From positions 64,001 to 128,000 of the forward strand of contig JAWBQF010000003.1 in the NCBI GenBank assembly GCA_038845975.1: a DNA stretch of 64,000 nucleotides, read 5' to 3'. Source of the DNA: Candidatus Methanomethylicia archaeon. Its GTDB lineage: Archaea; Thermoproteota; Methanomethylicia; CALHIW01. This document shows, one piece after another, positions 5,092-58,836 of the stretch (position 1 is its first letter; every line of letters starts with the position of its first letter). A program made the position numbers and the translations under genes. Under the pieces are notes generated by a model. It saw only the letters and a program-made list of their open reading frames with translations. It was not told the origin of the DNA and did not search any database.

Positions 5092-5137
5092 AATATATAC
5101 TCTCTTCCAAACTTATGAGTTTTACCCTATCAGTAAG

Positions 5138-5843
5138 GGCTTTGTTAACTTTAGATTTATTTGGGAGTTCTCTCCCTTATTTATGGTGAATTATGGTTAA
5201 AGTTGTTAGGTTTGTAGGGAGTGAACTCCATTTACTCTAGTTGTTTATTACTTATATATTTCCGTTCTTCTAGAATGGCTTCAGATATTTAGTTTATTGT
5301 TGTAGGAGTTATTCTATATTATCGTGGTTTATCTTAATCTTCTATTGATGGGAGGGATGTTAGGATTGTTATGGTTGATCTATTGTAAGTAGGTTTTAAG
5401 AGTAAGGTTATTTATGTTGCGTTTGAGCCATTATTGAGGAGGATTCTCTATGTATGGGTTTGTGATGTTGCAAATATACTTACATCACTAACATTCCTTA
5501 AAAGATTAGAGCTATTTATGGTTCAAATATAGTTGTATTAAGTGATGGTGCTCATTATTATAAAGCATCATGTAGAATATTAAAATTAAAACATGAATTG
5601 TATAGTTTAGAAGTTAGAATTAATGGAGAGAATAATACAATACATTAAGGATAGAACTAAGCTATTCGATAACTACATACCATGCATGAAGGATAGATGT
5701 GATGGTGAACATGTATTAATGCTTATAAAATCAATAATATACATACTAAACAAACATGGATTAACAGGAAAATAAAAGCTAAGGAATTCATAGAAACACA
5801 ATACCAAAATAGAGGTAATAAACATGCTTAAGTTAACAAAGCC
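5138..5843 (+). mobile_element. IS6-family element, copy A (transposase frameshifted)
   Basis: Perfect 14-bp TIR GGCTTTGTTAACTT/AAGTTAACAAAGCC; 8-bp target duplication TCAGTAAG; DDE relics VAFEP, VLSDGAHYYKASC and MERIIQYIKDRTKLFDN. Confidence 0.9.
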
Positions 5844-5919
5844 TCAGTAAGTTTATCATATGGTAAATTATAGTTTAATTAGTGTAAAGTTAATTAGTTA
5901 GATCTATTAATCTGTACTA

Positions 5920-6846
5920 ATGAAGTGTACAAAATGTAGGAGGAGGCAAGCAGTATATTTAAGATCTTATTCAGGTGAAATGCTTTGCAGGTTTTGCTTT
6001 AAACGTTCATTAGAAGTGAAGGTTAAAAACACAATATCAAAGTATAGGCTTCTAAGCCATAACGACTCTATTCTTATTGCTGTTTCAGGAGGTAAGGATT
6101 CGTTAACTCTACTTAAGACTTTATGGAGGATTGAGAGTAGAATTCCAAGTGTTACTTTAGCTGTATTAACAATTGATGAGGGAGCTACTAGAAGCTATAG
6201 AGCAGAGGGGTTGAAGTTATCTAGGAAGATATGTGAAGATCTTAAAATCCCTCACTACATAGTATCCTTTAAGGAATATGTTGGCTATACGCTAAAGGAG
6301 CTATGGAGTAGGATTCAGGAGAAGAAGCTGGAGCTACTACCATGCTCCTACTGTGGAGTTTTAAGAAGAAGAATAATGAATACATTTGCTAAAGACCACG
6401 GCTTTACAAAGATAGCTACAGGCCATAATCTTGATGATGAAGTTCAAACATTCATAATGAACATAATGAGAGGAGATTACAGTAAACTATTCCGTTTCGG
6501 GGCTTCAATGGAGGTTGTTCCAGGATTTATACCAAGAATAAAACCTCTCAGATATATACCGGAGAAAGAAATTGCTTTTTATGCTTTTCTTGAAGGATTT
6601 AAGCTCTATGAGACTGAATGTCCCTATGTTCATCTATCAATGCGTGACGAAATAAGGTTTATGTTAAATGATTTTGAACGTAGATATCCTGGAATTAAGT
6701 TTTCAATAATGTCAGTAATGGATAAACTGAGTAAACAATTCAGTAAGTTAAGCAAGACATACTTCAAAACTTGTATAAGTTGTGGAGAACCAACATCAAG
6801 AGATAAATGTAGAGTATGTGAAATCATGGATTTAGTAAGTACATGA
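5920..6846 (+). CDS. ttuA: tRNA 2-thiolation protein (TtuA/Ncs6, TIGR00269-like)
   Basis: N- and C-terminal Zn fingers, PP-loop SGGKDS, CSYCGVLRR, TGHNLDD and ECPY. Confidence 0.9.
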   Translation: MKCTKCRRRQAVYLRSYSGEMLCRFCFKRSLEVKVKNTISKYRLLSHNDSILIAVSGGKDSLTLLKTLWRIESRIPSVTLAVLTIDEGATRSYRAEGLKLSRKICEDLKIPHYIVSFKEYVGYTLKELWSRIQEKKLELLPCSYCGVLRRRIMNTFAKDHGFTKIATGHNLDDEVQTFIMNIMRGDYSKLFRFGASMEVVPGFIPRIKPLRYIPEKEIAFYAFLEGFKLYETECPYVHLSMRDEIRFMLNDFERRYPGIKFSIMSVMDKLSKQFSKLSKTYFKTCISCGEPTSRDKCRVCEIMDLVST

Positions 6847-7149
6847 GTAAAGTTAGTGATACAGTTTAAGCATTATAATTCTCATACCTGAAATTAAAAG
6901 CTTATTCAAGATTATATGAAGTCCCCATGTCTTCCATTCTGGTTCATGAATTAAATCAATTTAAGATGTATTGATTAGCTCCCATTCCACTGAGAGATAA
7001 AGTTAGAACTCTATATAAAGGTCTTCTTGAAGTGACTGTAAGCCAAGCCAATCACGAAGATGTATCCCATAAATGCTTAGTAAAGTTCTAAATAGGAAAG
7101 GGCAGGATGGGGAACTATAGTATTCAATGTATTACTTGCAAACCCATAG

Positions 7150-9327
7150 TTAACTTACTTTAGAATAACAAGAATAATGTTTGAAACTGTAAATCCATTC
7201 TGGTTGTTGTGGAGCTTCCTTATTCTTAATCATTTCCCTCCATGCTTCATCTGTTAATCTATCGTTCTGAGGCCATGTGAATTCGTAGTAGCTCATCGTT
7301 GAGCCTGCTGCTAAATATGTTTTACTGTTTTCAGTTATATATGTAACTATTACTATGTCGAAGTATCCTGTTCCCACTTCAAGCACCATACTACTATTTG
7401 GATCTGTAAAGACATCAGTTATTATTCTTGAATCCTTCACCCTCCCTACAAAGTCTCTAAATAAATCTCTTATTTGATCATGGTATGATTTTATTAGGTA
7501 TTCCTCGTCTTCACTCAGTTTCTCTCCATTTAACTCCTTAATGGATATGTTGATCAGTAGTCTAAGGATTTGAGATAGTTTACCTAGCTTTTCACCATAT
7601 ACATCATTAATGAGATTCAGATTCTTTAGCCCGGTTGATGTAGCATCTACAAGGTTTTTAAGTCTTGAGTATAGTAGAGGGTTAGGCTCAACATAGCCGT
7701 AATGTGGTGGTTTTGGCGGTAGGGCTACTTTTGCAGCATATGGTTGTTTAGCGTATAGTATTGTATCATGTCTTAGCTGAGTCCAGCTTGCTAGAGCTGT
7801 ACTTAGGCTTTTATCAAGCCATGCTTCAGTCCTCATGTAGCTTGGATATCCCTCCGGAACCGGGCTTAGTAAAGCTTTAATTGTGTAGAGCCAATTCATG
7901 TATAGTGTTTCAGTCCATTCTCTACCAGTAATGCTCTCTACAAACTTCTTCATTTCCTCAAGCTTTTCAGAGTATCCTTTATATTTTGCTTTTTCATCCT
8001 CAAGATATTTCTCAGCTCTTTCAGATCCTAGAGCAGCCATTATATCCATTCCCTTAACCATAAATCTATAAATGTTTGGATAGCATAGTGATTGATGTAT
8101 GTATCCATCTATAATAAACCTCTGACCCATAAATCTTAAGCCAGCTATTCTAACTCTTTCTTGAGGATATATTGGAACATTAACTATTCTGGATTTGTCA
8201 AGCTTAACAATTTCATCCTGGAATCTTGAAAGCTTATCTCCATCACTAATCATGTTTGGATTAAAGTTTAAACCATATATCTCCATAGCCTTCTCAATGT
8301 AATCGTATAGGGTTAAATCATCTGATTTTCCAATTATAAATGCTGTTGGAACATATATTTTCTCCCAAATACTTAAAGCAGTTTCCCCTGAAATTTTTGT
8401 TGTAAGTATTAGGTATGTTAGAATTAATGCTTGAGCAGTCTGTATCCTAGCAAGTTCAGGATTAAACGGATCAGAAGCTTCAAACCTCATTCTTCCAAGC
8501 CACATCATCGCCTTAAAATACCTCTTCAACGTGTCGTTAACCGTATAGTGTCCTCTAGGTTTATATTGAGTATAATCCTCAATATACTTGAATATTGGGC
8601 TTTCAGCCTCAGTATCCTCAGCCTTATCTATAAGCCTCAACTCCATATCAGCAATTCCTGAAACTTGTTTGGGAACTATATAGCTAGGATTTAGAAGCTT
8701 ATAGGCTACGGAAAGATATGCAAGATCTCTTTCAGCTGCCTCTCTTACAAGCATATTTTGAGTTAATGAATCAATTATCCTTAAAATCTCATCTATAAGT
8801 GATTTAAGAAGCTTCTCTAGCAATGGATAAAACCTATTTTGCTCCATATCTATTAAAAGCTGATTGAAGAATGCATGATAAATAAATAAAATAGAATCTG
8901 ATGAAATGTATATCGGTATACCTAAATCATGAATATACATATAGATGTCCAAGAGATCGTTAAAGGAGCTGCCTATAACAACAAAACCATTACTTTTAAG
9001 CTTCTCTATAGCTTCACTACTTAATTTAAGCTTACTGGAAACATCATTGAAATTCAATACTTTATCTAGATCTAGCGGTAACATGTATTGGGAAGCATTA
9101 CCATGAGAAACATGAACCTCAACTCCATTAATTCTAAAAGCAGAAAAACCCATAATAACAGGTGTAATGGTAATTGGGGATATTGTTAAAGATTTAGAGG
9201 TTATGGTGAGTGATGTATGAGATATTGGTGATTTAGAAGGTATCATAACCATTACTGCAACTATAGATATAATGATTACTATTACGATTACTAAGGCTAT
9301 AATTTTAGATATAGCATATGAAGTCAT
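7150..9327 (-). CDS. DUF3160-domain membrane-anchored protein
   Basis: N-terminal TM; YTQYKPRGHY, RFMGQRF, WTQLRHDTILYAKQ and RLTDEAW motifs. Confidence 0.85.
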   Translation of the reverse strand: MTSYAISKIIALVIVIVIIISIVAVMVMIPSKSPISHTSLTITSKSLTISPITITPVIMGFSAFRINGVEVHVSHGNASQYMLPLDLDKVLNFNDVSSKLKLSSEAIEKLKSNGFVVIGSSFNDLLDIYMYIHDLGIPIYISSDSILFIYHAFFNQLLIDMEQNRFYPLLEKLLKSLIDEILRIIDSLTQNMLVREAAERDLAYLSVAYKLLNPSYIVPKQVSGIADMELRLIDKAEDTEAESPIFKYIEDYTQYKPRGHYTVNDTLKRYFKAMMWLGRMRFEASDPFNPELARIQTAQALILTYLILTTKISGETALSIWEKIYVPTAFIIGKSDDLTLYDYIEKAMEIYGLNFNPNMISDGDKLSRFQDEIVKLDKSRIVNVPIYPQERVRIAGLRFMGQRFIIDGYIHQSLCYPNIYRFMVKGMDIMAALGSERAEKYLEDEKAKYKGYSEKLEEMKKFVESITGREWTETLYMNWLYTIKALLSPVPEGYPSYMRTEAWLDKSLSTALASWTQLRHDTILYAKQPYAAKVALPPKPPHYGYVEPNPLLYSRLKNLVDATSTGLKNLNLINDVYGEKLGKLSQILRLLINISIKELNGEKLSEDEEYLIKSYHDQIRDLFRDFVGRVKDSRIITDVFTDPNSSMVLEVGTGYFDIVIVTYITENSKTYLAAGSTMSYYEFTWPQNDRLTDEAWREMIKNKEAPQQPEWIYSFKHYSCYSKVS

Positions 9328-9372
9328 AAGTTAAAATTCTATAAGCTTTAAATATTTAATGCACCAGTAATA

Positions 9373-9470
9373 CGTTCTATGAATTTTAGCTTTATTTAAA
9401 TTTCTCTTATTTATGATGGTATGGTTAGGTTTATTAGGGAAAGAACCTATTTATTTTAGATGTTATCTAA
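9373..9470 (+). mobile_element. Degraded left-end remnant of the IS6 element
   Basis: Aligns by eye to the first ~100 bp of copies A-D. Confidence 0.5.
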
Positions 9471-9514
9471 ATTATAAGGATAGTTCTATAACCATGGGAA
9501 AAAATGGGTTAATG

Positions 9515-9958
9515 TTATTCCATGCCCCATTTTTTGGTTATTTTCACTATTAGAAAGATTACAAAGGCCACTATAATAAATGTTATTATGGATACAAGGA
9601 AGTTTCCAATGCCAAATAGTTGTCCTGTCCAGTTTGGATCTATTGGGTTTCCTTGGGGGTCTAAGGCTGTTGGTGGAACAGCGATTCTTAAAGTGGATAG
9701 GTTTCCCAAGCCAGGAAGTGCTAACCCTATTAGTGGCATTAATATATCCTTGACAAGCGACTGTACAACTTGACCGACATAAACACCCATGATGAAAGCT
9801 ACAGCAAGCCCTAACACTTTATATTTAGAAATGAAGTCTATGAACTCATTCCATAGGCTTTTTTTGGGCGGTGGAGCAGGCTTAGGCTCTAATAGCATCT
9901 TTATATCCTTCAAAACCTTCAGAATCTCTTCACCCACATTTTCTTCTATCTTAGACAT
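9515..9958 (-). CDS. mscL: Large-conductance mechanosensitive channel
   Basis: EFIDFISKYKVLGLAVAFIMG, SLVKDILMP and GNFLVSIITFIIVAF. Confidence 0.92.
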   Translation of the reverse strand: MSKIEENVGEEILKVLKDIKMLLEPKPAPPPKKSLWNEFIDFISKYKVLGLAVAFIMGVYVGQVVQSLVKDILMPLIGLALPGLGNLSTLRIAVPPTALDPQGNPIDPNWTGQLFGIGNFLVSIITFIIVAFVIFLIVKITKKWGME

Positions 9959-10017
9959 GCAACATTCTCCTTTAAGAAATTATCACAAAATTATTTAAAC
10001 TTTTCTTCCTTATTTAT

Positions 10018-10731
10018 GGCTTTGTTAACTTTAGATTTATTTGGGAGTTCTCTCCCTTATTTATGGTGTTAGTATGTCTAAAGTTGTTAGATTTGTTAGG
10101 GAGAGAACTCCATTTACTCTAGTTGTTTATGGTGCTTATATATTATTCCCATTCATGTTCTTCTAGGATGGCTTCAGATATTCTAAGCTTATTGTTGTTA
10201 GGAGTTATTCTATATTATCATGGTTTATCTTAATCTTCTATTGATGGGAGGGATGTTAGGATTGTGGTTGATGATACTATTATTAGTGTGGGGTCTATGA
10301 GGAGGATTGTTTATGTTGCGTTTGAGCCATTGTTGAGGAGGATTCTATATGTATGGGTTTGCGATATTGCAACATACTTACATCACTAACATTCCTTAAA
10401 AGATTAAAACTACCTATGGTTCTAATATAGTTGTATTAAGTGATGGAGCTCATTATTATAAAGCATCATGTAAGATATTAAAATTAAACATTATATAGTT
10501 TAGAGGTTAGAATTAATGGATGGAATAATACAGTATGTTAAGGATAGAACTAAGCTATTCGATAATTATATACCGTGCATGAGGATAAATGCGGTAATGA
10601 GCATGCATTAATGCTTATGAAGTCAATAATATACATACTAAACAAACATGGATAAGGAAGATAAAAGCTAAGAATTCTAGAAACACAATAACAAAATAGA
10701 GGTAATAAAACATGATTAAGTTAACAAAGCC
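10018..10731 (+). mobile_element. IS6-family element, copy B (frameshifted, flanks not duplicated)
   Basis: Same perfect TIRs; flanks TTATTTAT and TGAGAAAG do not match. Confidence 0.9.
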
Positions 10732-10780
10732 TGAGAAAGTATAGTAAAATTTATATTTAATTGATGAAATTTATATTGCT

Positions 10781-11295
10781 ATGCCTCCACATCATATTGG
10801 TTATCGTATAGGTGAGGCTTTAGTTGGGGAGGGGGATGAAATAGCTCATATTGACTTAATAGTTGGAGATAAGGATGGACTGTTGGTGTAGCTTTTGCAG
10901 CTGCATTAGCTTCTCAAAACCCGGGGCATACAACACTATTTGCTGTTTTAGCTCCAAATCTACTAGTAAAGCCTGTAACTCTCATTGCTCCTAAGGTAAC
11001 GATTAAGAATATGAAGCAAGCTGAACTAGCTTTCGGCCCAGCTCAGTATGCAATAGCTAAAGCTGTTATAGATTCTGTTGCTGAAAATATAATTCCAAAA
11101 CATATTGTTGAGGATATTGTAATTATATGTGGCTTATTTATTCATCCTAATGCTAAGGATCCAGATAAGGTTTTTAAGTATAATTATGATGCTGTAAAGT
11201 TAGCTTTAAAAAGAGCATTAATATGTGAACCATCTATTGATGAAGTGCTTGCTAAGAGGGATACTGCAATACATCCATTCTATAAACCAAAATAA
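10781..11295 (+). pseudogene. fae: Formaldehyde-activating enzyme with a single-base frameshift near 10880
   Basis: [24 protein letters not shown], then a shifted frame [36 protein letters not shown]; length 515 nt is not a multiple of 3. Confidence 0.85.
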
Positions 11296-11439
11296 TCTTT
11301 TTTGCAATACATCTATTCCTTAACACTTAGTTAATTCAACATATACATTATGTAGTATTTATTTTAGCTTTGTAGAGTGTAGTTTTAGTTTAACATATTA
11401 ACAATTTATCTTATATATGATTTCCCCAATTCTTGAATA

Positions 11440-13218
11440 CTATGGAATAAGGCTTACTGGCCTGTAGTTTACTGTGTCTATGAGTCCTTTCTCAGTTATT
11501 CTTAGTTCAGGTAGGACATCTAGAGCTAGTAGAGATATTGTCATGAATGGGGAAATCCATCTACATCCTTTCTCCCTCCATATTTTATATGTTTTTTCAA
11601 GTTCTTCAGCAACTGTTTCAGGCTCCTCTATTGACATGAGTCCAGCTAGGGGAAGCCTAATGAATGCTAGCTTCTCCCCTTTATCTACGGTGATTATTCC
11701 ACCTCCTTCTTTTTCAAGTTCTCTTATTGCCATTACCATGTCTTCATCTCTTAAACCTATTACTAATATATTATGGTTGTCATGAGCTACTGTTGATGCA
11801 ATTGCTCCAAGCTTAAATCCAAAGCCTTTTACGAATCCAAGTCCTATTTCTCCAGTCCCCCTATGTCTCTCGATTACGGCAATCTTGTATATATTTCTCT
11901 CAGCATCAGGTAGGATAATGCTATTGTTAACATGTAGCTCTTCTATGGAGCTTCTTGTTAATACGCTTCCTTCAATTGCTTCTATTGCTCTAACTTCAAT
12001 TTTTCCCTCTTCAATAGGGGCTCTTACCTCAAGATCCTTCGTTTTTATTTCTCTTCCTATATTTACTGTTTTTAAATGTTTTTCTTCATATTTCGGTTTC
12101 TCCAAATCTGCTAATAGCCTTCCATTTCTTGCAATTACTTTTCCATCTGCAATTACTGTTTCAACTTCAACCCTGCTTAGATTCCTCAATATAAGAATAT
12201 CGGCATATTTAGATGGTGCTATACTTCCTATTTCTCTATCTAGATTGTAGTGTTCTGCTGGATTTATTGTAGCCATCTGTATTGCTCTAATAGGGTCAAC
12301 TCCCTCCTCTATTGCTCTTCTTACAACATGATTCATATGTCCCTGCTTCAGTATGGAGTTTATTTCCCTATCGTCTGTTACTAGGCAGGCATGTCTTGAA
12401 TCTATTTTCGTCTCTGTTATTGCCTTTACTGTTTCAGCTACATCAAGCCAAGCAGATCCCTCCCTCATATATACATACATGCCAAGTCTCAGTCTTTCAA
12501 CCGCATCTATTTTCCTTGTTAATTCATGAGATGATGAAATTCCAGCAGCAACATAAGCTGTAAGATCTCTTCCTAATAGGCCTGCATCATGCCCCTCAAC
12601 TACTTTTCCAATTTTATGTGTAACATTTATCTTTTCAAACACCTCCATATCTACTGATAAAACTCCTGGATAATTCATCATTTCCCCTAGCCCTACTACC
12701 TCATTCCAGCTAAGCATTTCCTCTACTTCTCTTGGTCCAAGATATGCTCCGGATGTTTCAAACATCGGATTTGCTGGTACACATGATGGAGCAGTTATGA
12801 AAACCTTAAGAGGAAGATTTTTCCCCTCCATAATCATAAGTTTTACTCCATCTAGTCCTAGTACATTTGCTATTTCATGTGGATCTATGAAGACTGTTGT
12901 AGTTCCTCTCGGTAAAACAGTTTTCGCAAATCCTGTTAGATTTAGCATACTACTTTCAACATGAACGTGAGCATCTAAAAATCCTGGAACCACATATTTC
13001 CTCTCCGCATCAATAATGATGGTATTATCTCCTACTGTATGAGATATATCCCCAATACTTGCAATTCTATCCCCCTTTACAGCTATTCCCCAACCCTCCA
13101 GAACCTCTCCAGAATTCACGTTAACAAGAGTTGAGTTAAGAATAGCTAGATCTGCTTTCTCTATTCCTAAAGCCACCTTAACTAGAGATTTAGAAACTTC
13201 CCAAAGCTTACTTCTCAT
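11440..13218 (-). CDS. ade: Adenine deaminase
   Basis: PGFLDAHVHVESS, DPHEIAN, LGEMMN, MATINPA and STVAHDNHN. Confidence 0.95.
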   Translation of the reverse strand: MRSKLWEVSKSLVKVALGIEKADLAILNSTLVNVNSGEVLEGWGIAVKGDRIASIGDISHTVGDNTIIIDAERKYVVPGFLDAHVHVESSMLNLTGFAKTVLPRGTTTVFIDPHEIANVLGLDGVKLMIMEGKNLPLKVFITAPSCVPANPMFETSGAYLGPREVEEMLSWNEVVGLGEMMNYPGVLSVDMEVFEKINVTHKIGKVVEGHDAGLLGRDLTAYVAAGISSSHELTRKIDAVERLRLGMYVYMREGSAWLDVAETVKAITETKIDSRHACLVTDDREINSILKQGHMNHVVRRAIEEGVDPIRAIQMATINPAEHYNLDREIGSIAPSKYADILILRNLSRVEVETVIADGKVIARNGRLLADLEKPKYEEKHLKTVNIGREIKTKDLEVRAPIEEGKIEVRAIEAIEGSVLTRSSIEELHVNNSIILPDAERNIYKIAVIERHRGTGEIGLGFVKGFGFKLGAIASTVAHDNHNILVIGLRDEDMVMAIRELEKEGGGIITVDKGEKLAFIRLPLAGLMSIEEPETVAEELEKTYKIWREKGCRWISPFMTISLLALDVLPELRITEKGLIDTVNYRPVSLIP

Positions 13219-13414
13219 AGGATTTCCTACATAGCTAGAATAAATACTTTCCTATAATCGGTACGATCAAGTTAAATCCTAAACTTTATGAGTTACTATA
13301 TACTAACTTAATGGTATTATCTATACCTCACAGTAAATTAGAGTTATGATTAACTAGGCTATTTGTATTTAGCTATAAGATTAGAATTATAGTGTTTATG
13401 ACGTCTATTAATTA

Positions 13415-14059: not shown

Positions 14060-14148
14060 TACTCATTATAACACAAGATTATTTTTAAACATTTCTAAGC
14101 TTTGCATTCAATTATATGTGGTGCTTACATTTGCAGAGGAAATTAATC

Positions 14149-15009: not shown

Positions 15010-15146
15010 ATCCTTAAGCCACTTAATTTACTAATATTTCCTTAGCTTTAAAGCTTCCTATTATGTATTTTGTTACGTTTAAATTGCTGGAGTTGATGGG
15101 GAGCATTAAGTTAATGAGAACCTAATGTCAGCCTGAGAGCATGGGT

Positions 15147-17130: not shown

Positions 17131-17154
17131 GTACGTTCACCTAGTCATCTATAG

Positions 17155-33141: not shown

Positions 33142-34536
33142 CTATATCTTGCTTAGAGCTCTTCTTAATGTTTCCCTGTATAGTGGTGTTTTGCCAAGCA
33201 TGCTTTCTTCCTAAACGATCTCTAGGTCCAGCTTCGCCTTACCATAATCTAAAGGTACTCCACCCTTATAAGCATATTATTTTCCACTAAGATATCCTCA
33301 ATCTTAGCCATATTTCTTGTTATTTTTCCCATTATGTTATCTAAATCCTCAATAAGCTTCCACATAAGATCACATAGCCACTTAACATAATGCTTCACTC
33401 TATCTAACCCTATAGCTCTAACAATATCGTCTATAGCAATAAGAATGTATCTATCTCTAAGATTCTTTCTAAAAGCTTTCTCAGCAATTCTATCGATAAT
33501 TAGCGAAATAGGTCTTAATAATGCATGACCAAGCAGAGTATTTTGCTGGAGGAGATCCATGATGCTTCTAAACCAATTTTGGAAATATCAATTAGCATAG
33601 ATGATGTTAAAGACTTCCTAACATCTTTATCCTCAAGAGCATCAATATATACTACTACACCATCCATAAAGAAATCATTAAACCTCCTAACAAACTCTCT
33701 TAAAAGCCTAGTTTTACCACATCTCTCAGGACCATATATGTGGAAAGATATAGTTCTAAATCGACTACAATACTCATTTAAAGCTTTAAGCTCTCCAATT
33801 CTGGCTTTGTTAACTTTAGCTTTATTTGGGTCTTCCTTATTTATGGTGATGGTATGTCTAAAGTTGTTAGGTTTTGTTAGGAAGAGAACTCTATTTACTC
33901 TAGTTGTTTACCAATTATATATTCGTTCATCTAGGATGGCTTTAGATATCCTACTTTATTGTTGTTAGGAGTTATGTATCTATATTATAATGGTTTAGAT
34001 CTTTAAGCTTCCTATTCAAATTTGGTAGGAGGGTTAGAATTTTATAGTTGATGATACTATTATAAGTTAGGCTCTATGAGGAAGATTGTTTATGTTGCTT
34101 TTAAGCCATTATTAAGAAAAATTCTATATGTATGGGTTTGTGATGTTACAAGTATGCTTACATCACTAACATTAAAAGATTAGAGCTATCTATGGTTCTA
34201 ATATAATTGTATTAAGTGATGGTGTTCATTATTATAAGGCATCATGTAGAATATTGAATTTAAAGCATAATAAAGTATTTAAAAGTTAGAATTAGTGGAG
34301 GGAATTATACAATACATTAGGATAGATAAACTATCAATAATTAATACCGTGTATGAAGGATAAGTGTGATGGTGAACATGTATTAATTCTTATGAAGTCA
34401 ATAGTATAGCTAAACGAACATGGATTAATAAGAAGATAAAAGCTAAGAATTCTAGAAACACAATACCAAAATAGAGGTAATAAAATGTTTAAGTTAACAA
34501 AGCCCTAATTCTATCAATAAATCTTATATTCTCCAT
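33142..34536 (-). pseudogene. Archaeal P-loop ATPase pseudogene interrupted by IS6 copy C
   Basis: Removing the IS rejoins MENIRFIDRIGELKAL...YGPERCGKT (Walker A); Walker B ILIAIDD lies in ORF 33249-33560; further frameshifts. Confidence 0.8.
33803..34504 (+). mobile_element. IS6-family element, copy C (frameshifted)
   Basis: Perfect TIRs; target duplication CCAATTCT/CTAATTCT (7/8). Confidence 0.9.
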
Positions 34537-46633: not shown

Positions 46634-46645
46634 ACTGCTAGTGGA

Positions 46646-49380: not shown

Positions 49381-49679
49381 GCTTAATAACTCTAAAAGCT
49401 TAATATGAAGCTCATTGATGAGCCTATACTGTCTAACATAGTAAGATGAAGTTAAAGCTTAGCTATAATCTTACTTTTAATAAACTGTATATAGCTTTCC
49501 GAAATGTATTTATAAGGTATTTTATAGTAGGTTGCATATTGTTGAGATTGGTATTACATGGATTTAAGTAGTGTTTAAAATTAGTAAAATAGTTAAAGTC
49601 TTAAATCTATGTTAGCTATATAGCTTTAGTATCTTAGTAGCTTATCATGTATATTCCGTGAAGTATATATGTTTGTTCT

Positions 49680-51152: not shown

Positions 51153-51211
51153 ACATTTATTCAATCAATAACCAATTTATTAGTTGTAGTAAGTGAATAA
51201 ACTATTATGGT

Positions 51212-52246: not shown

Positions 52247-52248
52247 TT

Positions 52249-52770
52249 CTACACCTCTATAGATTTCAATATTTCAACTCTACAATCTATAAGTTGATCA
52301 ATTTCCTCGGTAAGCTCTGTAAGCTCTGTTAAACATTTTCTCCAATCTTCAGATCCAGGAGTTTTACTGCTAGCATCCCTAACCTTTCTTAGAATTTCCT
52401 CTGTTTTCTCTATTAGACTTAGATCATGCTCAATAACTTTATCAAGCCTCCACTCATCAACCTTTACAATATCGAAAAATCCAGAGTAGCCTGCAATAGC
52501 TTTATCAATTCTCTGGGTAATTCTATCCATTCTGTTTAGAAGCTGATCGAAAACCCATTTATCTTCATCGTTAAGCTTAGATATAACTATAGGGTTTGAA
52601 AGCTGTATTCTCAATTCTTTTTTAGCTCTTCTCAGCTTACTCGTAGCCTCCATTCTTACAAGTCTATCAGTTTCTCTTCTAACCTCCTTCTCTTTATATC
52701 CTCTATATCCTGGAATATAGCTTAAAATCTTTTCTAAAATTCTTAACTGGGGCTTAACCTTACCACTCAT
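52249..52770 (-). CDS. Conserved helical protein in the SPFH operon
   Basis: IPGYRGYKEKEVRRETDRLVR; 2 nt from the SPFH gene. Confidence 0.7.
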   Translation of the reverse strand: MSGKVKPQLRILEKILSYIPGYRGYKEKEVRRETDRLVRMEATSKLRRAKKELRIQLSNPIVISKLNDEDKWVFDQLLNRMDRITQRIDKAIAGYSGFFDIVKVDEWRLDKVIEHDLSLIEKTEEILRKVRDASSKTPGSEDWRKCLTELTELTEEIDQLIDCRVEILKSIEV

Positions 52771-52774
52771 ATTC

Positions 52775-53083
52775 TCACCTTCTACTAGGAACTAGTATTA
52801 GTAGCGCAAGGATAGTTATAAGTATTCCTATCCAGAAAATAGGGTTAATGAACTCTATGGAAATAGTTGCTAAGCCAGTAATGGTAAGTATAAAACACCA
52901 TGCAAGATAAAACCTAATATCTCTTGTAAAGAAGCAGTAACCGCCAATACCAAGCCCAACTATAATTAGTATACATCCAATAGCGAAGTTAAGAATCCAA
53001 GGAATAATACCAATAGATAATGCAACTATAAAGATACCAATTACAATAAGTAGAGAAGCTAAGTAAACATCATTAATCCTCAT
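52775..53083 (-). CDS. Small four-TM membrane protein
   Basis: Hydrophobic 102-aa ORF; TATA upstream; stop overlaps the AGGTGA RBS of the next gene. Confidence 0.7.
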   Translation of the reverse strand: MRINDVYLASLLIVIGIFIVALSIGIIPWILNFAIGCILIIVGLGIGGYCFFTRDIRFYLAWCFILTITGLATISIEFINPIFWIGILITILALLILVPSRR

Positions 53084-53171
53084 ATTGAAAATTAAACATA
53101 GATAAATATAAATCTTTCAGTTTTATGATAACTATTTAAACTATATGTGTATTCCTAAACTCTTTATAAAG

Positions 53172-53768
53172 TTATTTTCTAGGTGCACCGCAATGTGGAC
53201 ATGTTGTTGCTGTTTGGGGTATTAGTGTCCCACAGTATTGGCATTGTATCATTACAACCTCACGGATAACAACCTCTTTCTCCTTAACAATAGGTGCTAC
53301 GCTTGGCTGAACTACATCAACTTCAATAGTTTCACTTACCCTATCAAGTCTCCCCTTAACAGCAATAACACCCTTAATTGTCCATTTAACCCTTCTATCT
53401 ATGCTTTTATAGCTTGGTCTTCCAGTAGCTGGAATACCTATACTGAATGGGAAAGATTTATTGAAGCCTACATTTATATGTATCGGACCGCTAAGTATAG
53501 GATTTGCGGAGTATAGCGTCGCAGACTCCCATACCTCCCTTTCAACTTCATGTTTAAGCCTCTCATCATAAATCCTCCTTAAAACCTTCCTCTCTTCAAC
53601 ACATCGAACTTCACATCTAATTTGCTCAGCATCGAAATCCTCACTTGAAGATACCGTTAAATCCCCATCAATACTCTCACCTAAAGCAAAACTATTCCTA
53701 CTAACTCTTAATGAAAGGGTAGCTTTTGGTGGAGTAAGCTTCTTCATAAATTTGTCAAGAAGAGGCAT
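53172..53768 (-). CDS. Arrestin-N/SpoOM-like beta-sandwich protein with C-terminal Zn ribbon
   Basis: FALGESIDGDL, FPFSIGIP...PSY...VKWTIKG; CQYCG..CPHCGA. Confidence 0.65.
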   Translation of the reverse strand: MPLLDKFMKKLTPPKATLSLRVSRNSFALGESIDGDLTVSSSEDFDAEQIRCEVRCVEERKVLRRIYDERLKHEVEREVWESATLYSANPILSGPIHINVGFNKSFPFSIGIPATGRPSYKSIDRRVKWTIKGVIAVKGRLDRVSETIEVDVVQPSVAPIVKEKEVVIREVVMIQCQYCGTLIPQTATTCPHCGAPRK

Positions 53769-53858
53769 TTACTCACCCAAATTTAACATAAAGCATTCAC
53801 CAAATCCAGTATAACCTATCTCCTCTAAGCTGTATTTAAACTTTTACTAGATCTATTA

Positions 53859-54570
53859 GGCTTTGTTAACTTTAGATTTATTTGGGAGTTCCCTCCCCTA
53901 TTTATGGTGTGTTTATGGTTAAAGTTGTTAGGTTTTAGGGAGAGAACTCCATTTACTCTAGTTGTTTATGGTGCTTACATATATTTTCGTTCTTCTAGAA
54001 TGGCTTCGGATATTTTAAGCTTCATTATTGTTAGGAGTTATGTATCTATATTATCGTGGTTTATCTTAATCTTCTATTGATGGGAGGGATGTTAGATTTT
54101 ATGGTTGATGATACTATTATTAGTGTAGGTTCTAAGAGTAAGGTTGTTTATGTTGCATTTGAGCCATTATTAAGAAGGATTCTATATGTATGGTTTGTGA
54201 TGCTGCAAACATACTTACATCTCTAGCATTCCTTAGAAAATTAGAGCTATTTACGGTTCTAATATAGTTTATTAAGTGATGGAGCTCAATACTATAAGCA
54301 TCATGTAGAATATTAAAATTAAAACATGAATTGTATAGTTTAGAGGTTAGAATAATGGAGGGAATAATACAATATATTAAGGATAGAACTAGATTATTCG
54401 ATAACTACATACCATGCATGAAGGATAAATGCGATAATGAGCATTAATGCTTATGAAGTCAATAGCATACATACTAAACAAACATGGATAAGGAAAATAA
54501 AAGCTAAGAATTCATAGAAAACATAATACCAAAAATAGAGGTGATAAAACATGCTTAAGTTAACAAAGCC
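53859..54570 (+). mobile_element. IS6-family element, copy D (frameshifted)
   Basis: Perfect TIRs; perfect 8-bp target duplication ATCTATTA. Confidence 0.9.
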
Positions 54571-55266
54571 ATCTATTAGTATAAAATTTTGAAAAGCCCC
54601 ATCTTTGGGTTATTGGATATGGATGATATGAGAAAACTTTAATTGAGCTATATACAAGAGCCTTGCAGAATCTTGTATAAGGAGTAAATAGAGGAGCAGA
54701 GTGGAAAATCTTGAAAGACTTAAACCGTAAGGAGGAGACATAGATGCTACTGAAGTATATCAGTTCAAGCGGATCACGCATGGTACTCAGCTAGCCTACA
54801 TAGTATAGGAATATGCTGAGATCGCAGCTTATTCAGCCCTGAAACGGAATCGTTGAGGCTTTCAAGCAACACGGAAACCAAATAAAATGTAAACATCTAT
54901 CATATCTCCGTATGATGTTGAATGTTTGTATGATCTGAGATACCCTTTCCGCAAATATGAGCTAATCGCTGAGGAGAAGTTAAACCATACATAAACCAAG
55001 GAATCTAAATGAAGGATAGGGCTATGAATATGGAAAACATGGTATTTCATAGGGTGAATTCACATATATTCGATTGCTTTTACAAGCTACATTGGAAGTT
55101 TAAAGCAGAATGATATTTGCTTAAAAGCTTGTGGGAGAGTGATTGAAGTAGGATGAACAAGCCGTAAAGCAGATATCTTATCAAAATCATTTACTATAAC
55201 TTATATGGACAACTAGGAGGCTAAATTATATTTATTAGAGCATGTTTAATTATATTGGGTTAAATC

Positions 55267-55965
55267 TTGCTTATTCTTATTTTAGCTGAATCCGCTCTTG
55301 AAACTGTTCCAGACGAAATAGCTAATCATCCAGTTATTAGAAGGTACTCTAAAAAAAGAGGTAAGGATCCTAATTTGGTAATTCTCGATCGTTCATATCA
55401 TCATCGTGCAATGCTTAATCTTCCTAATGGATTTAAGAGGGGGAGACCTGATATAGTCCATTTTTCCCTACTTTCAGCTTTAGGAACGCCATTAGTAAGG
55501 GAGAAATTAATGGAAGTATATGTACATACCATAGCTAACTATGTAATCTATATTAATCCTGAAGTTAGAATTCCTAGAAATTATCTACGCTTTATAGGGT
55601 TAATGGAGCAGCTATTCCAGTATGGAATGGTCCCGCCAAACAGTAAGAATCCCCTCATGAGAGCTGCAAGGAAAAATCTTAGAGACTTACTATATGAACT
55701 AAATCCCAACTATACCGTAGCATTTACAAGAAGAGGTATTGCTCAAACTTTAGAGGACGCTATGTCCAGAATTATGAGTAGAGGAAAGATTGCCGTTCTA
55801 GTAGGCGGTTTCCCTCATGGTGGATTCTCCGAGGAAACATTAAGACTTGTAGATGAGACTATATGTATCGATCCTGAAACTCTTGATGCTTGGACGGTTG
55901 TATCTAGAATAATTTATGAGTATGAAAGAATCAGTAATATTACTAAAAGAAGAATTAAATTATAG
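55267..55965 (+). CDS. nep1: 16S rRNA pseudouridine N1-methyltransferase Nep1/Emg1
   Basis: LAESALE, LDRSYH, RGRPDIVH, RIPRNYLRFIGLMEQL and VGGFPHG. Confidence 0.95.
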   Translation: MLILILAESALETVPDEIANHPVIRRYSKKRGKDPNLVILDRSYHHRAMLNLPNGFKRGRPDIVHFSLLSALGTPLVREKLMEVYVHTIANYVIYINPEVRIPRNYLRFIGLMEQLFQYGMVPPNSKNPLMRAARKNLRDLLYELNPNYTVAFTRRGIAQTLEDAMSRIMSRGKIAVLVGGFPHGGFSEETLRLVDETICIDPETLDAWTVVSRIIYEYERISNITKRRIKL

Positions 55966-56125
55966 AAACATAGGTTAAATTGTATTTTAAGAACGGTTTT
56001 AATCCATTTCAAGTTGTTTATCATTATAATTATTTCAGCTCTAACAAAAGTAGATATTTCAGCTAAATGAGAGCTACTATAGTTTAGTAGAAATAGATGA
56101 GTATTATATCGTCTTTTATATTAGT

Positions 56126-57730
56126 TTATGATAATATGCTTTCCATTATTTTCCCGGCTACTTCCTCAATTAGTGGTATGCCCGTAGCTTTAGAAGCTCT
56201 TTCAGATAATGCTACTAAATCGTTTCTATCAAGTAGATTAAGCTTCCACTTTCTTGCTCCAGCCATTAATTGCTGTAAGCCAATCCTGATCCTATCCATA
56301 TATGTATATAGGCCAACTGCTCCCCAAGGTATTTCTCTAAATCTCTCCTTGAATATGGCTTTTAAATCTGGAGCACTTATGAAGAATTTTTCAGGAGAAT
56401 TACCGTAAAGCTCTTCAAAGCTTCTTGGTAGTTTGCCCTTTTCAGCTAGCTCAGCGAAGTATGATGCCTTCATTACGGCAGTTAATGGTGCTCTACCCAT
56501 CAATATAGCTTTCACGTAAGGCCCATTACCGAAGTTGCTTAATGCGATTGATTTGAATATTTGTGTTTCATCAATGAATCCTCCAGCCATGACTATGTCA
56601 GGTATGTATTTACCTTTTCTTTTAAGGATTTCAGCACACTTTAAGACTTGTGCTTCAAGATAAACTGTTGGTGTACCCATTTCATTCATTTGCGGTACAG
56701 GACTCATTCCAGTACCGCCACCAGCTCCATCGAAAACAACATAGTCAATCTTGGCTTCAGAGGCAACCTTCATAGTGAAGGCTACAGCCTCCGGACTATA
56801 AGCTCCTGTTTTTAGGCTTATCTTCTTTGCTCCATGCTCTCTTAGCCACTCGATATCCTCAATAAATCCTCTCTCCGTAGGTATTCCAACACGGCTATGT
56901 CTCTCAAATGTTTTGAAGACTCCTTGCTTAAATGCCTCCTGAACTCCAGGATCTTCAGGATCAGGTATTACTATGTATCCTCTCTTCTTTAATAGAATAG
57001 CTTTCTGTAAATCATTTATTCTAACTTCTCCACCTATTGCTTTTGCTCCTTGTCCCCATTTTCTTTCAATAACGTTTACTTCAAGTCTTGATATTGCATA
57101 GATATCTACTCCAAGTCTTTGATCCTCAACATTTGTTTGAACAGCTATATCTCCATATTTTCCATCCCAGAATTTCCGGAAGGCCTCAACTCTTCTCTTA
57201 AGTTCTGATGAATGAACAACTTTACCGTTTTCAATTCTTGATTCGGGATCCATTCCACATACATTCTCCCCTATAGTAACTATTATTCCGGATAGTGCTC
57301 CACCAATTGCTAATCCATCCCAATTCAGTCTTGCTACCTCAGTAGAGCCGTAAGCACCTATTATTATCGGTATTTTAAGAGGAATACCTCCAACCTCAGT
57401 TTCTACATTAACATTTGGGAAAATAGCTACATCAGGATTCTCATCTATACCTATTACACCTAAAAGTCTAGATTGAATATTGAAGTGGGACCAATCCAAA
57501 CCATAATCTTTCAGGGATCCTGCTGTACTATTCCCGAACATGCTTGGATCTGGATAGAGAGCTTCTCTTCCCCTAAATGCTGAGAGCGAAACCATACATA
57601 TAACTGGGCATCCCTTAATACATATCGGGCATAAACCGCTAATTGGGCAAACATCTTCAACTCTTGTTCTTGTTCCGGTTGTAGACATAGCATTTAAATA
57701 TGAGGAATTTCTATGAATAGGGCCAGGCAT
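56126..57730 (-). CDS. FMN-binding glutamate-synthase-family protein
   Basis: N-terminal Cys cluster, GENVCG, KWGQGAK, DGAGGGTGMSP and MAGG. Confidence 0.9.
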   Translation of the reverse strand: MPGPIHRNSSYLNAMSTTGTRTRVEDVCPISGLCPICIKGCPVICMVSLSAFRGREALYPDPSMFGNSTAGSLKDYGLDWSHFNIQSRLLGVIGIDENPDVAIFPNVNVETEVGGIPLKIPIIIGAYGSTEVARLNWDGLAIGGALSGIIVTIGENVCGMDPESRIENGKVVHSSELKRRVEAFRKFWDGKYGDIAVQTNVEDQRLGVDIYAISRLEVNVIERKWGQGAKAIGGEVRINDLQKAILLKKRGYIVIPDPEDPGVQEAFKQGVFKTFERHSRVGIPTERGFIEDIEWLREHGAKKISLKTGAYSPEAVAFTMKVASEAKIDYVVFDGAGGGTGMSPVPQMNEMGTPTVYLEAQVLKCAEILKRKGKYIPDIVMAGGFIDETQIFKSIALSNFGNGPYVKAILMGRAPLTAVMKASYFAELAEKGKLPRSFEELYGNSPEKFFISAPDLKAIFKERFREIPWGAVGLYTYMDRIRIGLQQLMAGARKWKLNLLDRNDLVALSERASKATGIPLIEEVAGKIMESILS

Positions 57731-57830
57731 TTCATCACCAAATCTATATTAGGTGTATGAGTAGCTTATTGCCTAAATATAAATTTTTCGGTAAGATGAA
57801 TCTGGAGCCCATATTTACCACTAACAATTA

Positions 57831-57866
57831 GGTGCCGGTTACCGGTTGCCGTATATAAGTTTTTCT
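57831..57866 (-). promoter_or_regulatory. GC-rich palindrome abutting a distal BRE/TATA upstream of the glutamate-synthase-like gene
   Basis: CCGGT-T-ACCGG (57835-57845); GAAAAACTTATATAC on minus; a second, proximal TATA at ~57772-57791. Confidence 0.35.
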
Positions 57867-58392
57867 ACAAAACAATATTCCGTTTTTCAAACTAACTGCC
57901 TCAAATTATAGAAGTTTCATGCATTTATAATTTACTATATTAAGAGTTCTTCGAATAATCTCACATAGAATTAGGACGAAAAAGAAACCAATTCAATAGA
58001 ATTAATTCTTTAACAGCTTTATAGCTTAATTTAGTGTTATAATTTATAAGTTTTGATTACAGCTTAACTATAAGGCTTCCAAGCTATACTACCATTACTA
58101 AATCATGTAGATCAAACCATAATGTTAGAACCCTCTATTATAAGTTAACTAAAATAAGTAATGAAGTGAAAACTTAAATCAACTATTAGCAACATATACT
58201 ACCAGATTTACCATCTATTCTATAGATGCTAAATAACTTATATAATACTTAACCTAACCAAAACTTTAATACTACAAATTCCAACACACACATCATGAGT
58301 TTCTAAGATTAACAGAGCTTATTAGCTGTAAACTAGGTATAGGTATATGGATGCTTATAAGCTTATAGTAGGTATGGTTAGTTTACATAGTT

Positions 58393-58617
58393 CTAAACTG
58401 CTTTCCATCTTTCCCTTTCTAAATCTATTTTCTTCTTAATGGCTTTCTTAACAGCTTTATAATGCTTCTCACATAGATATATATTTCTCCCTCCACTCTT
58501 AAATTGAAACCCTACATTGGATGGTATGCTTTTTAAAGATACTGACTTAACGGCCCGATCAGTACAGTTATGAATAGAGCATTCAACCCCCTTTCCAACC
58601 TTCCCCATCAAGACCAC
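58393..58617 (-). CDS. Small conserved archaeal Zn-binding hypothetical protein
   Basis: CSIHNC...YLCEKH; TATA 25 nt upstream. Confidence 0.7.
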   Translation of the reverse strand: MVLMGKVGKGVECSIHNCTDRAVKSVSLKSIPSNVGFQFKSGGRNIYLCEKHYKAVKKAIKKKIDLERERWKAV

Positions 58618-58665
58618 TATAACCTAAATAGTACTGAATTATTTAAGCTTACCTACAGGTTACTA

Positions 58666-58836
58666 TGCTTTGTGGACTTAAGTATGTTTATTACCTTCTA
58701 AGCTAATCCAGGGAAATAGGTTAATAAAACCTACAAACATGAATGATATCCTCATCCTATTAAAGAACCCTAGTTATCAATCATGCTTAATATAGGATAA
58801 AAATACTCCTACCTAAACTTCTAAAGTTGACAGGCA
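58666..58836 (-). mobile_element. ~170-bp MITE derived from the IS6 element (inverted orientation)
   Basis: TGCTTTGTGGACTTAAGTATGTTTATTACC matches the reverse complement of the right end; CTAAAGTTGACAGGC matches the reverse complement of the left end. Confidence 0.6.

Follow-up and report, generated by a model that had tools for sequence, protein, structure and literature searches.

Ends of a divergent IS6-type insertion sequence lie 18 nt upstream of host TATA boxes in a Methanomethylicia archaeon

Copies of a short insertion sequence (IS) in the genome of a Candidatus Methanomethylicia archaeon lie at a fixed distance from host promoters. The gene-facing tip of the IS precedes the first T of a TATA hexamer by exactly 18 nt and the BRE by 12 nt. 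The IS is always found on the BRE side, either of its ends may face the promoter, and the BRE, the TATA box and the gene are left intact. The choice of target is thus very probably directed by the archaeal core promoter. Promoter-guided target choice had been proposed in a sequence-only reading of one 64,000-nt stretch of this genome (hereafter the window), and is borne out by a one-nucleotide, strand-specific peak that is repeated in two other elements and hosts.

The IS is about 710 bp long, with 14-bp inverted repeats and an 8-bp target duplication. The four window copies, A to D, span 702-714 bp, inside the 700-890 bp range of IS6 elements. All four carry the inverted repeat GGCTTTGTTAACTT at both tips, and 8 perfect matches to this 14-mer were observed in the window versus 0.85 expected. 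In the whole genome the repeat is perfect in 150 of 241 supported ends. Its tip is GG and its core TGT, i.e. a short perfect terminal repeat of the IS6/IS26 kind. Perfect 8-bp duplications directly abut the tips in 22 of 60 paired copies; 6 others have duplications with 1-2 mismatches and 32 have none. Repeats, duplications, length and, probably, a single DDE transposase are shared with IS6/IS26 as described in the available part of a review (PMC7986276). According to the same text, IS6/IS26 copies often lose the duplication through recombination or intramolecular events, and duplication-less copies are similarly frequent here. Duplication partners were found at remote places in the assembly in 14 cases, compared to 0-3 in controls. 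Copies with exchanged flanks are numerous, a candidate trace of the replicative cointegrate pathway.

The genome carries about 200 copies of the IS, corresponding to 3% of its DNA. All of them are pseudogenes, the longest open frame (P0001) being 145 aa, and the insertion events are therefore old. A single ORF across the element is intact in relatives only, for instance the 228-aa ORF of the related copy L035. The stretch is contained in 19 sequencing runs from 9 studies, mostly labelled as hot-spring metagenome. Contigs of four sequencing runs end at IS tips and none of them spans an empty site. Summed IS read depth, which is not equivalent to copy number, far exceeds the depth of the flanks.

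The IS6 assignment made in the sequence-only reading holds only in the sense of a divergent family member. The intact homologue P0003 matches the NCBIfam profile transpos_IS6 (NF033587) with an E-value of 5.7e-14 over positions 2-197 of 202, its 52 bits being under the curated cut-off of 125. No Pfam match was obtained for P0001, and P0007 reached only E 0.19 with PF13610. The enzyme is so divergent from the IS6/IS26 family that it is missed by Pfam and stays under the NCBIfam cut-off. The 228-aa transposase aligns along the whole length of the IS6 profile and has no additional domain.

Features of the IS copies and neighbouring promoters in the window (positions are those of the window)
Feature	Position	Strand	Description
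galT-like gene	4054-5091		345-aa ORF, faced by the promoter element at 5114..5125
Weak promoter-like element of the galT-like ORF	5114..5125	-	CTCATA 5114-5119 after GTAAAA; 18 nt to tip
IS copy A	5138..5843	+	706 bp, decayed; L end 5138, R end 5843
Copy A duplication	5130-5137 and 5844-5851		TCAGTAAG, 8 bp
Degenerate L-end IS remnant	9373..9480	+	Right boundary approximate
BRE/TATA of mscL (9515-9958)	9994..10005	-	TTTAAA 9994-9999, GAAAAG 10000-10005; 18 nt to tip 10018
IS copy B	10018..10731	+	714 bp, decayed; promoters at both flanks
BRE/TATA of broken fae	10744..10755	+	GTAAAA 10744-10749, TTTATA 10750-10755; 18 nt from tip 10731
IS copy C	33803..34504	+	702 bp, decayed; interrupts ORF 33525-33968
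Copy C right flank	34517-34528		ATAAAT-CTTATA; 18 nt from tip; score 4.7
IS copy D	53859..54570	+	712 bp, decayed
Copy D duplication	53851-53858 and 54571-54578		ATCTATTA, perfect
BRE/TATA of arrestin-N-like/zinc-ribbon ORF 53172-53768	53835..53846	-	TTTAAA 53835-53840, TAAAAG 53841-53846; 18 nt to 53859
MITE-like deletion derivative	58666..58834	+	About 170 bp; R-type end 58666, damaged L-type end near 58834 (right boundary placed by eye)
BRE/TATA of 74-aa ORF 58393-58617	58642..58653	-	CTTAAA 58642-58647, GGTAAG 58648-58653; 18 nt from MITE tip

The five window ends first reported to lie exactly 18 nt from a hexamer (tips 5138, 10018, 10731, 53859 and 58666) were all reproduced, the last one belonging to the MITE-like derivative with the inverted repeat TGCTTTGTGGACTT. 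At this register the promoter matrix described below scores 16.8 for mscL, 14.6 for fae, 12.9 for the arrestin-like gene and 1.4 for the galT-like gene, whose box had rightly been called non-canonical. The gene names proposed at the same time fared unevenly. Pfam supports MscL (E 3.4e-23) and Fae, the latter split over two pieces (E 7.9e-7 and 1.3e-33); only a weak match was obtained for arrestin-N (E 4.5e-5, below cut-off), and the galT-like protein has no Pfam match. Counted from the beginning of the hexamer, the start codon comes after 31 nt for fae (ATG at 10781), 30 nt for the 74-aa ORF and 28 nt for the galT-like ORF (ATG), a spacing that would suit a leaderless transcript in the latter case. 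The remnant at 9373 is off register, as had been stated: its tip, too degenerate for exact placement, is separated by about 19-20 nt from the TTTAAA at 9348-9353. The location of copy C within a gene was also correct. It interrupts an ORF whose frame runs into the IS, its duplication (CCAATTCT/CTAATTCT) has one mismatch, and its right flank still presents CTTATA at 18 nt. Copy B has no target duplication (TTATTTAT versus TGAGAAAG) and a promoter on each side. Such two-promoter copies are therefore later recombinants between two promoter-adjacent copies. The suggestion of a safe harbour with an unharmed promoter fits these sites, since the BRE and the TATA box persist together with a start codon some 28-39 nt further downstream.

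The register was scored on 225 unique IS ends from the whole genome. TTTAWA on the outward strand was found 18 nt from the tip at 47 of these ends, compared to 5 at 17 nt and 3 at 19 nt, so that the distance histogram of all ends is neither flat nor broad. Away from gaps 17-19 the counts range from 0 to 4, with a mean of 1.07 at gaps 25-79 (Poisson P for 47 versus this mean, 3.7e-59). A promoter matrix was then trained on the 47 TTTAWA flanks themselves. Scores of at least 8 were obtained at gap 18 for 59 of the 225 ends, with a background of 0.05-0.07% per position (binomial P 1.5e-131). The plain-pattern counts, the flank composition table and two out-of-sample element sets are independent of the matrix. 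The peak is strand-specific, AA..TTTAWA being present 35 times in the 18-nt register and 0-2 times at any gap on the opposite strand. Random insertion followed by purifying selection, in which the survivors are those sparing the core promoter and the neighbouring genes, is very improbable as the origin of this histogram. The copies are old and decayed and the genome is compact, which speaks for this explanation. However, selection would permit any site upstream of the BRE, whereas matrix matches number 0-1 at gaps 6-16 and 0-2 at gaps 20-79 against 59 at gap 18, and the same nucleotide recurs in three elements and hosts.

In the unaligned flanks the information is restricted to positions 13-26, which read GWAARR-TTTAWATA, i.e. 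a BRE followed by a TATA box. Positions 1-12 carry at most 0.11 bit each: nothing is conserved between the tip and the BRE, in agreement with the earlier remark that the target duplications have no common sequence. The promoter is faced equally by L ends (36/102) and R ends (36/112). A duplication could be recognised at 39 insertions; in 24 of these a single flank carries the promoter, and in no case do the two flanks. The 22 copies with a perfect duplication divide into 14 with the promoter on one side, none on both and 8 on neither, a motif score of at least 5 being absent from these 8 clean insertions. Eight of the 14 remote-partner insertions are one-sided and none is two-sided; promoters on both sides occur in 5 copies, all without duplication. 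The signal is thus asymmetric, 13-26 nt off and on one side only, unlike the usually symmetric consensus in or beside the duplication of the IS10/IS30 type, and the distance from a promoter element is fixed, as in host-factor-tethered systems. One-sidedness could owe something to the loss of insertions that severed a gene from its promoter. The copies are old pseudogenes, so that selection had time to thin the set. Taken together, the fixed position of the tip and the 8-bp duplication imply an original target made of an 8-bp staggered cut window, 4 nt, the BRE (6) and the TATA element (8).

A promoter carried outward-facing at the IS end, or chance matches in AT-rich DNA, can hardly account for these flanks. 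The observation closest to a carried promoter comes from a sister IS, four flanks of which (L043, L046, L069, L071) are identical over the 24 nt from tip to TATA and divergent beyond. For the bulk of the copies these explanations are contradicted: the duplications abut the 14-bp repeats with the promoter on one side only, positions 1-12 are unconserved, all 225 flanks are unique and different host genes lie downstream. The per-position rate given above argues against chance.

Several observations identify the motif with the host core promoter. About 10 of 16 tRNA genes (aragorn) carry GAAAG/ATAAAG+TTTAWA, as read by eye, and the hexamer precedes the tRNA by 28-32 nt. An outward ORF is present at 58 of 77 motif-bearing ends versus 39 of 132 motif-less ends, and an ORF follows the motif in 39 of 59 IS-adjacent cases versus 844 of 2787 motif matches genome-wide, the gene calls used for these counts being crude. 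The distance from TATA to start at motif-bearing ends has a median of 33.5 nt (IQR 28-38). The variants TTTAAA, TTTATA, TATAAA, CTTAAA and CTCATA are all found at the exact register. Compared to TTTAWA upstream of genes, IS-adjacent motifs are nearer to the consensus (A at -3, 98% versus 62%; G at -6, 55% versus 27%). A bacterial-type hybrid promoter, formed by the outward TTAACA of the repeat 23 nt from the hexamer, was considered and rejected, as the host has TBP/TFB and a 23-nt spacing does not fit sigma-70 promoters.

The same register is observed in relatives. In the sister IS, found on metagenome contigs, 32 of 105 unique flanks have the motif at gap 18, 9 at gap 19 and at most 3 elsewhere; removal of 7 window-type ends leaves 29 of 98 at gap 18 (hand count). 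A duplication is present in 19 of its copies; the promoter is on one side in 14 of them and on both sides in none. A canonical IS6 element of Candidatus Caldarchaeum, represented by 70 unique ends, has 32 promoter-like matches at gaps 15-21, 13 of them at 18, and only 6 over the other 43 gaps. Its 187-aa protein scores 116 bits (E 1.4e-33) with the IS6 family profile, and its transposase is only 25% identical to that of the sister IS. The repeat core TGT(T/A/C)AACTT(A)AG is common to all three elements that obey the rule. An ISC774-type element, whose repeat GTGTGGACAACAATTT is devoid of this core, gave no 18-nt peak over 26 ends, and the rule is therefore not claimed for all archaeal IS6 elements. 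A DNA search of 31 genomes, including this one, detected the IS here and in the same-genus genome G001 (62% complete) only. The latter contains degenerate relics at 68-71% identity, whose ends are too decayed for the register to be scored. A contig search of the genomes with transposase alignment A1 gave no relative, and a further contig search used the Caldarchaeum-type protein as query. In 24 of 30 phylum-wide NF033587 loci no inverted repeat was found; these 24 lie in open frames of 336-609 aa and so may not be ordinary IS. The G231-type (three elements, 7 unique ends) and the G120-type (4 unique ends) offer too few ends for a register.

How would such a small enzyme find the promoter? In the reading that we prefer, to which we give slightly less than an even chance, the degenerate 14-bp signal would not be read by the transposase itself. 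The transposase would instead dock on the complex of TFB and TBP with DNA, which corresponds in archaea to the Brf1/TBP used by yeast Ty3, TFB being the archaeal relative of Brf1/TFIIB. The active site of the transposase would thereby come to lie roughly one helical turn upstream from the BRE, where the complex has its upstream edge. Three features seem to lean towards docking, namely the end-to-end fit to the IS6 profile with no extra domain, the accepted TATA variants, which form the loose, W-tolerant set typical of TBP, and the absence of conservation over the 12 nt between tip and BRE. The broader proposal that an archaeal IS6 transposase clade (probable Methanomethylicia, hot-spring contigs, Caldarchaeum) uses the TFB/TBP-promoter complex as a landing pad is possible, and we advance it tentatively. 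Co-folding of the TFB1 core (residues 100-316) with TBP and a transposase from another host, in the absence of DNA, gave a score of 0.00 and is counted neither way.

Direct read-out of the BRE/TATA predicts the same histograms as docking and fits the flank composition equally; we regard it as a real, if rather doubtful, possibility. An N-terminal helix-turn-helix, or a second protomer of the transpososome, would bind the promoter as a pseudo-binding site and cut at a set distance from it, independently of any host protein. When read backwards, the promoter (T-W-T-A-A-A-Y-T-T) looks like the TGT(T/A)AACTT of the inverted repeat, and a single DNA-binding domain might thus recognise the two. In line with this, the shared core of the three rule-obeying elements is similar to the promoter consensus in reverse complement, the element without the core is also the one without the peak, and IS-adjacent motifs are unusually near to the consensus. 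IS26 is moreover known to target the end of a resident copy (PMC7986276, in the part available). On the other hand, two distinct sequences would need to be recognised by one protein of 187-228 aa that lacks any additional domain, weak non-consensus boxes (CTCATA, CTTAAA) are tolerated at precisely this register, and transposases with 25% identity hold the same register to the nucleotide; none of these points is decisive.

A structural or accessibility cue, in which distorted or exposed DNA beside a bound or bent TATA box attracts the transposase with neither contact nor base read-out, appears improbable. The region is AT-rich, TBP bends DNA and many transposases favour bent targets. However, the one-nucleotide peak and the dependence on BRE orientation are sharper than a usual shape preference, and the cut window is 10-18 nt away from the TATA box.

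Promoter-guided integration is so far known mainly from yeast retrotransposons. In the available text on Ty3 (PMC8632968), this element integrates at Pol III genes via TFIIIB (TBP/Brf1/Bdp1). Ty3 and the present IS both use a one-or-two-nucleotide window at a TATA-type element and leave the gene unharmed, the role of a TBP complex being only presumed for the IS. Ty3 is, however, an LTR retrotransposon whose integrase has a chromodomain and which lands at the transcription start, whereas the IS is a DNA transposon with a minimal DDE transposase that lands about 18 nt before the TATA box. Near-promoter or near-tRNA integration is reported for fission-yeast Tf1 and Dictyostelium TRE5-A (PMC6101501, PMC4600332, PMC5006619), which, like the IS, appear to follow a convergent 'safe site' strategy in compact genomes; they are eukaryotic retroelements with broader windows. 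The available part of the IS6/IS26 review describes hybrid -35/-10 promoters and targeting of resident IS26, with no promoter preference (PMC7986276). Against this treatment of IS6 elements as preferring no target beyond their own copies, the nucleotide-exact landing stands in contrast. No description of a promoter-guided archaeal transposon was found in the papers covered by the literature search. Other small IS also have a precise insertion point that is set by a motif and lies outside genes: some bacterial elements reportedly insert into REP sequences, a structured and repeated host motif, and IS1111/IS110 elements are said to use a seeker or bridge RNA. These systems rely on REP palindromes or guide RNA and on other transposase types, whereas the motif of the present IS is the general transcription signal of its host.

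Landing that spares promoters would explain how a compact genome tolerates so many copies, and offers a convergent parallel to the strategies of Ty3, Tf1 and TRE5-A. With this system one can test by what means a minimal DDE enzyme gauges its distance to a transcription complex or signal. If docking is true, it would be the prokaryotic DNA-transposon counterpart of Ty3/TFIIIB, arisen on the archaeal side of a shared transcription machinery; each insertion would then record in vivo, as a natural footprint, a promoter that was occupied, and the 187-228-aa enzyme would be a minimal promoter-tethered integrase. Counting 18 nt outward from an IS tip locates a TATA box, which may assist promoter annotation in uncultured archaea.

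Of the 102 L ends in this genome, 98 contain a promoter-like TTTATT of the element's own that begins 18 nt from the tip, as in a mirror, and none of the 112 R ends does. This suggests that the target might mimic an IS end. However, in the sister variant that has the intact ORF (L017, L035) a 43-nt insertion moves TTTATT to about 64 nt from the tip. Since the L ends of this variant obey the 18-nt rule despite the displaced box, the mirror is kept as a side remark only.

The 14-nt terminal repeat GGCTTTGTTAACTT occurs perfectly eight times in the window, against 0.85 occurrences expected by chance with up to 2 mismatches allowed, and delimits four copies (A to D, 702-714 bp) of an IS6-type insertion sequence. 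All copies in the window are pseudogenes with numerous stops and frameshifts. The sequence-only reading had placed five IS6-type ends 18 nt upstream of TATA boxes, and all five spacings proved exact when the gap is counted from the IS tip to the first base of the hexamer on the outward strand. The adjoining genes encode MscL, a broken Fae, a weak arrestin-N/zinc-ribbon protein, an unnamed 345-aa ORF and a 74-aa ORF. The fae gene (10781-11295) is split across at least two frames, which either marks it as a pseudogene or reflects an assembly error.

Features of the IS copies and of the fae gene in the window
Feature	Position	Remark
IS copy A	5138-5843	perfect 8-bp duplication
IS copy B	10018-10731	without duplication
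IS copy C	33803-34504	8-bp duplication with one mismatch
IS copy D	53859-54570	perfect 8-bp duplication
Deletion derivative, ~170 bp	start 58666	
Degenerate IS relic	near 9373	
L ends with inner TTTATT	5138-5195, 10018-10075, 53859-53916	
Fae profile positions 1-25	10781-10891	36-aa ORF
Fae profile positions 69-158	11011-11295	separate 94-aa ORF

The window corresponds to C3:64001-128000 of its genome assembly G000 (2.77 Mb, 76 contigs), where IS-like DNA forms 212 regions totalling 84,164 bp, or 3.0% of the genome. Open frames in these copies reach at most 145 aa. Many contigs terminate inside an IS copy (e.g. C2:1-375, C10:1-167, C15:1-178, C40:1-312); therefore the youngest copies, those most alike, have probably been collapsed or lost in assembly, and the organism may still carry an intact transposase gene that the assembly lacks.

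IS ends were collected across G000 by requiring a repeat match with at most 2 mismatches, BLAST-supported IS sequence inside and 100 nt of flank. The resulting 225 ends (102 L, 112 R, 11 unclassified) are free of near-duplicates, and their unaligned flanks were read from the tip outward. Information is at most 0.11 bit at each of positions 1-12 and 25-60; positions 13-24 carry 0.12-0.42 bit and read G-W-A-A-R-R-T-T-T-A-W-A. The outward-strand hexamer TTTAWA starts at gap 18 in 47 ends, at gap 17 in 5 and at gap 19 in 3; the mean over gaps 25-79 is 1.07, giving a Poisson P of 3.7e-59 for the gap-18 count. At these 47 ends, positions 25 and 26 are T and A. When two A's are demanded at the BRE position, 35 ends remain in register with 4 and 2 on either side, and the opposite orientation yields 0-2 at any gap under the same requirement. 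A promoter matrix trained on the 47 ends scores at least 8 at gap 18 in 59 ends, at least 5 in 77 and at least 0 in 93, counts that are in-sample and partly circular; the per-position rates across the genome are 0.05%, 0.17% and 0.96%, respectively. This circularity does not affect the pattern counts or the composition table. L and R ends face promoters alike (36/102 and 36/112), and the promoter-facing share is independent of repeat decay. The genome-wide tally thus bears out the spacing seen in the window, with a sharp peak at gap 18 and gaps 6-16 and 20-79 nearly empty. Chance is ruled out by these statistics. Selection alone, which would permit any site upstream of the BRE, is rejected on the emptiness of the other gaps.

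The motif next to the IS tips is the host's own promoter. Read by eye, about 10 of the 16 tRNA genes detected by aragorn are preceded by (C)GAAAG or ATAAAG and then TTTAWA, the hexamer standing 28-32 nt ahead of the tRNA; at one of these genes an IS tip lies 18-20 nt upstream of the box. An outward ORF (at least 80 codons, within 250 nt) follows 58 of the 77 motif-bearing ends, the start codon lying at a median of 33.5 nt (IQR 28-38) after the first T. Among ends scoring below 0, just 39/132 have such an ORF, at scattered distances (median 65). Strong motif hits lead to an ORF in 844/2787 cases genome-wide versus 39/59 beside an IS tip. G000 codes for one TBP and two TFB paralogues and is therefore archaeal; a bacterial-type hybrid promoter fits neither the spacing nor the organism. 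Sixteen tRNA genes are few for a 93%-complete archaeal assembly; many others are probably intron-bearing, split or unassembled.

Both ends are present in 60 G000 copies, and in 22 of them perfect 8-bp duplications directly abut the repeats. These 22 have a promoter (score at least 5) on one side in 14 cases, on both sides in none and on neither in 8, several of the 8 scoring 0-2, as does copy A. Copies with a one-mismatch duplication are one-sided in 2/3 cases. For 14 ends without a local partner, a different IS end, in many cases one at a contig edge, carried the matching 8 bp (controls, 0-3); these remote pairs include 8 one-sided and 0 two-sided cases. In total, 24/39 recognisable insertion events show a one-sided promoter. 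Five copies, copy B included, are flanked by promoters on either side; all five lack a duplication and therefore arose by recombination or by intramolecular transposition between promoter-adjacent copies, processes described for the IS6 family in excerpts of a review (PMC7986276).

The 145-aa frame has no match in Pfam. Metagenomes contain homologues of it, one of which NCBI assigns to a Candidatus Methanomethylicia archaeon, the sole hint at the taxonomy of the host. An intact 228-aa homologue (63% identical) matches nearly the whole NCBIfam profile transpos_IS6 (E 5.7e-14), under the curated cut-off. This profile match, taken with the size, the 8-bp duplications and the GG...TGT repeats, features compared with the family description in the same excerpts (PMC7986276), is in keeping with a divergent member of the IS6 family. 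Fragments of a second IS6-type transposase (C7:63859-64185 and C1:162902-163135) resemble the Pfam DDE_Tnp_IS240 model more closely than the main element does and are broken by stops, two TGA in one and TAG plus TAA in the other. Among 30 phylum-wide NF033587 matches (L096-L125), no inverted repeats were found around the match in 24, where the IS6-profile match lies within open frames of 336-609 aa; these 24 are possibly IS6-like proteins that have been fused or domesticated.

A scan of metagenome contigs yielded 80 loci, mostly a sister IS with repeats CG(C/T)(C/T)TTGTAAACTT. Its 105 unique flanks, scored out of sample with the G000 matrix, have the motif at gap 18 in 32 cases, at gap 19 in 9 and at any other gap in at most 3; minus 7 ends with a window-type repeat, a hand count gives 29/98 at gap 18. 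Of 38 unique complete copies whose left flank is absent from G000, 27 are one-sided, 2 two-sided and 9 motif-less; the 19 with a duplication divide into 14, 0 and 5. The duplications, the one-sidedness and the lack of conservation in the 12 nt beside the tip rule out a promoter carried at the element end, with four sister-IS flanks as the exception. These four (L043, L046, L069, L071), of L and R types, are identical over the 24 nt from tip through TATA and divergent beyond, which could reflect repeated hits on paralogous promoters or a co-mobilised flank. At L020, L018 and L067, sister-IS ends stand tail to head with exactly 8 nt separating the two repeats; they are tandem or adjacent copies with a common duplication-sized spacer.

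A third element, bounded by the repeat GGGACTGTCAACTTAAGG, occurs in genomes recorded as Candidatus Caldarchaeum sp. and Nitrososphaerota archaeon. It encodes a transposase of 187 aa that scores 116 bits against the IS6 profile and shares 25% identity with the sister-IS protein. Among its 70 unique ends, promoter-like hits number 32 within gaps 15-21, most often at gap 18 (13), and 6 summed over the remaining 43 gaps. Its flanks show an AT peak at 19-25 and enrichment of G13 and A15-17, as in G000. The observation is confirmed and generalised beyond the window. The ISC774-type element, whose family includes the Sulfolobus control, has no tip-to-TATA peak among 26 ends. Therefore the promoter register is a trait of a clade, not of all archaeal IS6 elements.

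The insertion target is an 8-bp cut window followed by 4 nt, BRE and TATA. Insertion occurs on the BRE side only and in either IS orientation, and leaves the core promoter whole. Promoter-guided targeting, as first proposed from the window, is upheld; the TBP/TFB contact is retained as the favoured, putative reading. The transposase would dock on TFB/TBP at the promoter, and the cut window would lie at the upstream edge of their footprint. Docking is favoured because the enzyme is limited to the IS6 core, because the accepted boxes are loose, as TBP sites are, and because very different transposases hold the same register. Direct read-out of promoter DNA by the transposase is nearly as likely: the repeat core common to all three rule-obeying elements resembles a promoter read backwards, and IS-adjacent boxes are unusually consensus-like.

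Full-text searches of the openly accessible literature found no account of an archaeal IS whose insertion is directed by promoters or TATA boxes. None appears in the excerpts of two IS6 reviews (PMC7986276, PMC6807381), of a Pyrococcus re-annotation paper (PMC6640164) or of a 2026 archaeal IS survey (PMC13343696); from this survey the terms 'promoter', 'TATA' and 'target site' are absent. The nearest known system in kind is Ty3/TFIIIB (PMC8632968). Site-directed transposition and promoter-tethered integration are known kinds; what is new is this domain and IS family, where no description was found.

The L end itself contains a promoter-like TTTATT that begins 18 nt from the tip, present in 98/102 L ends and 0/112 R ends genome-wide; thus the element's own promoter mirrors the target promoter across the tip. 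The transposase ATG lies at IS position 57 in 44 copies. In a sister variant with a 43-nt insertion (L017, L035), the mirror symmetry is absent and the 18-nt rule is still obeyed.
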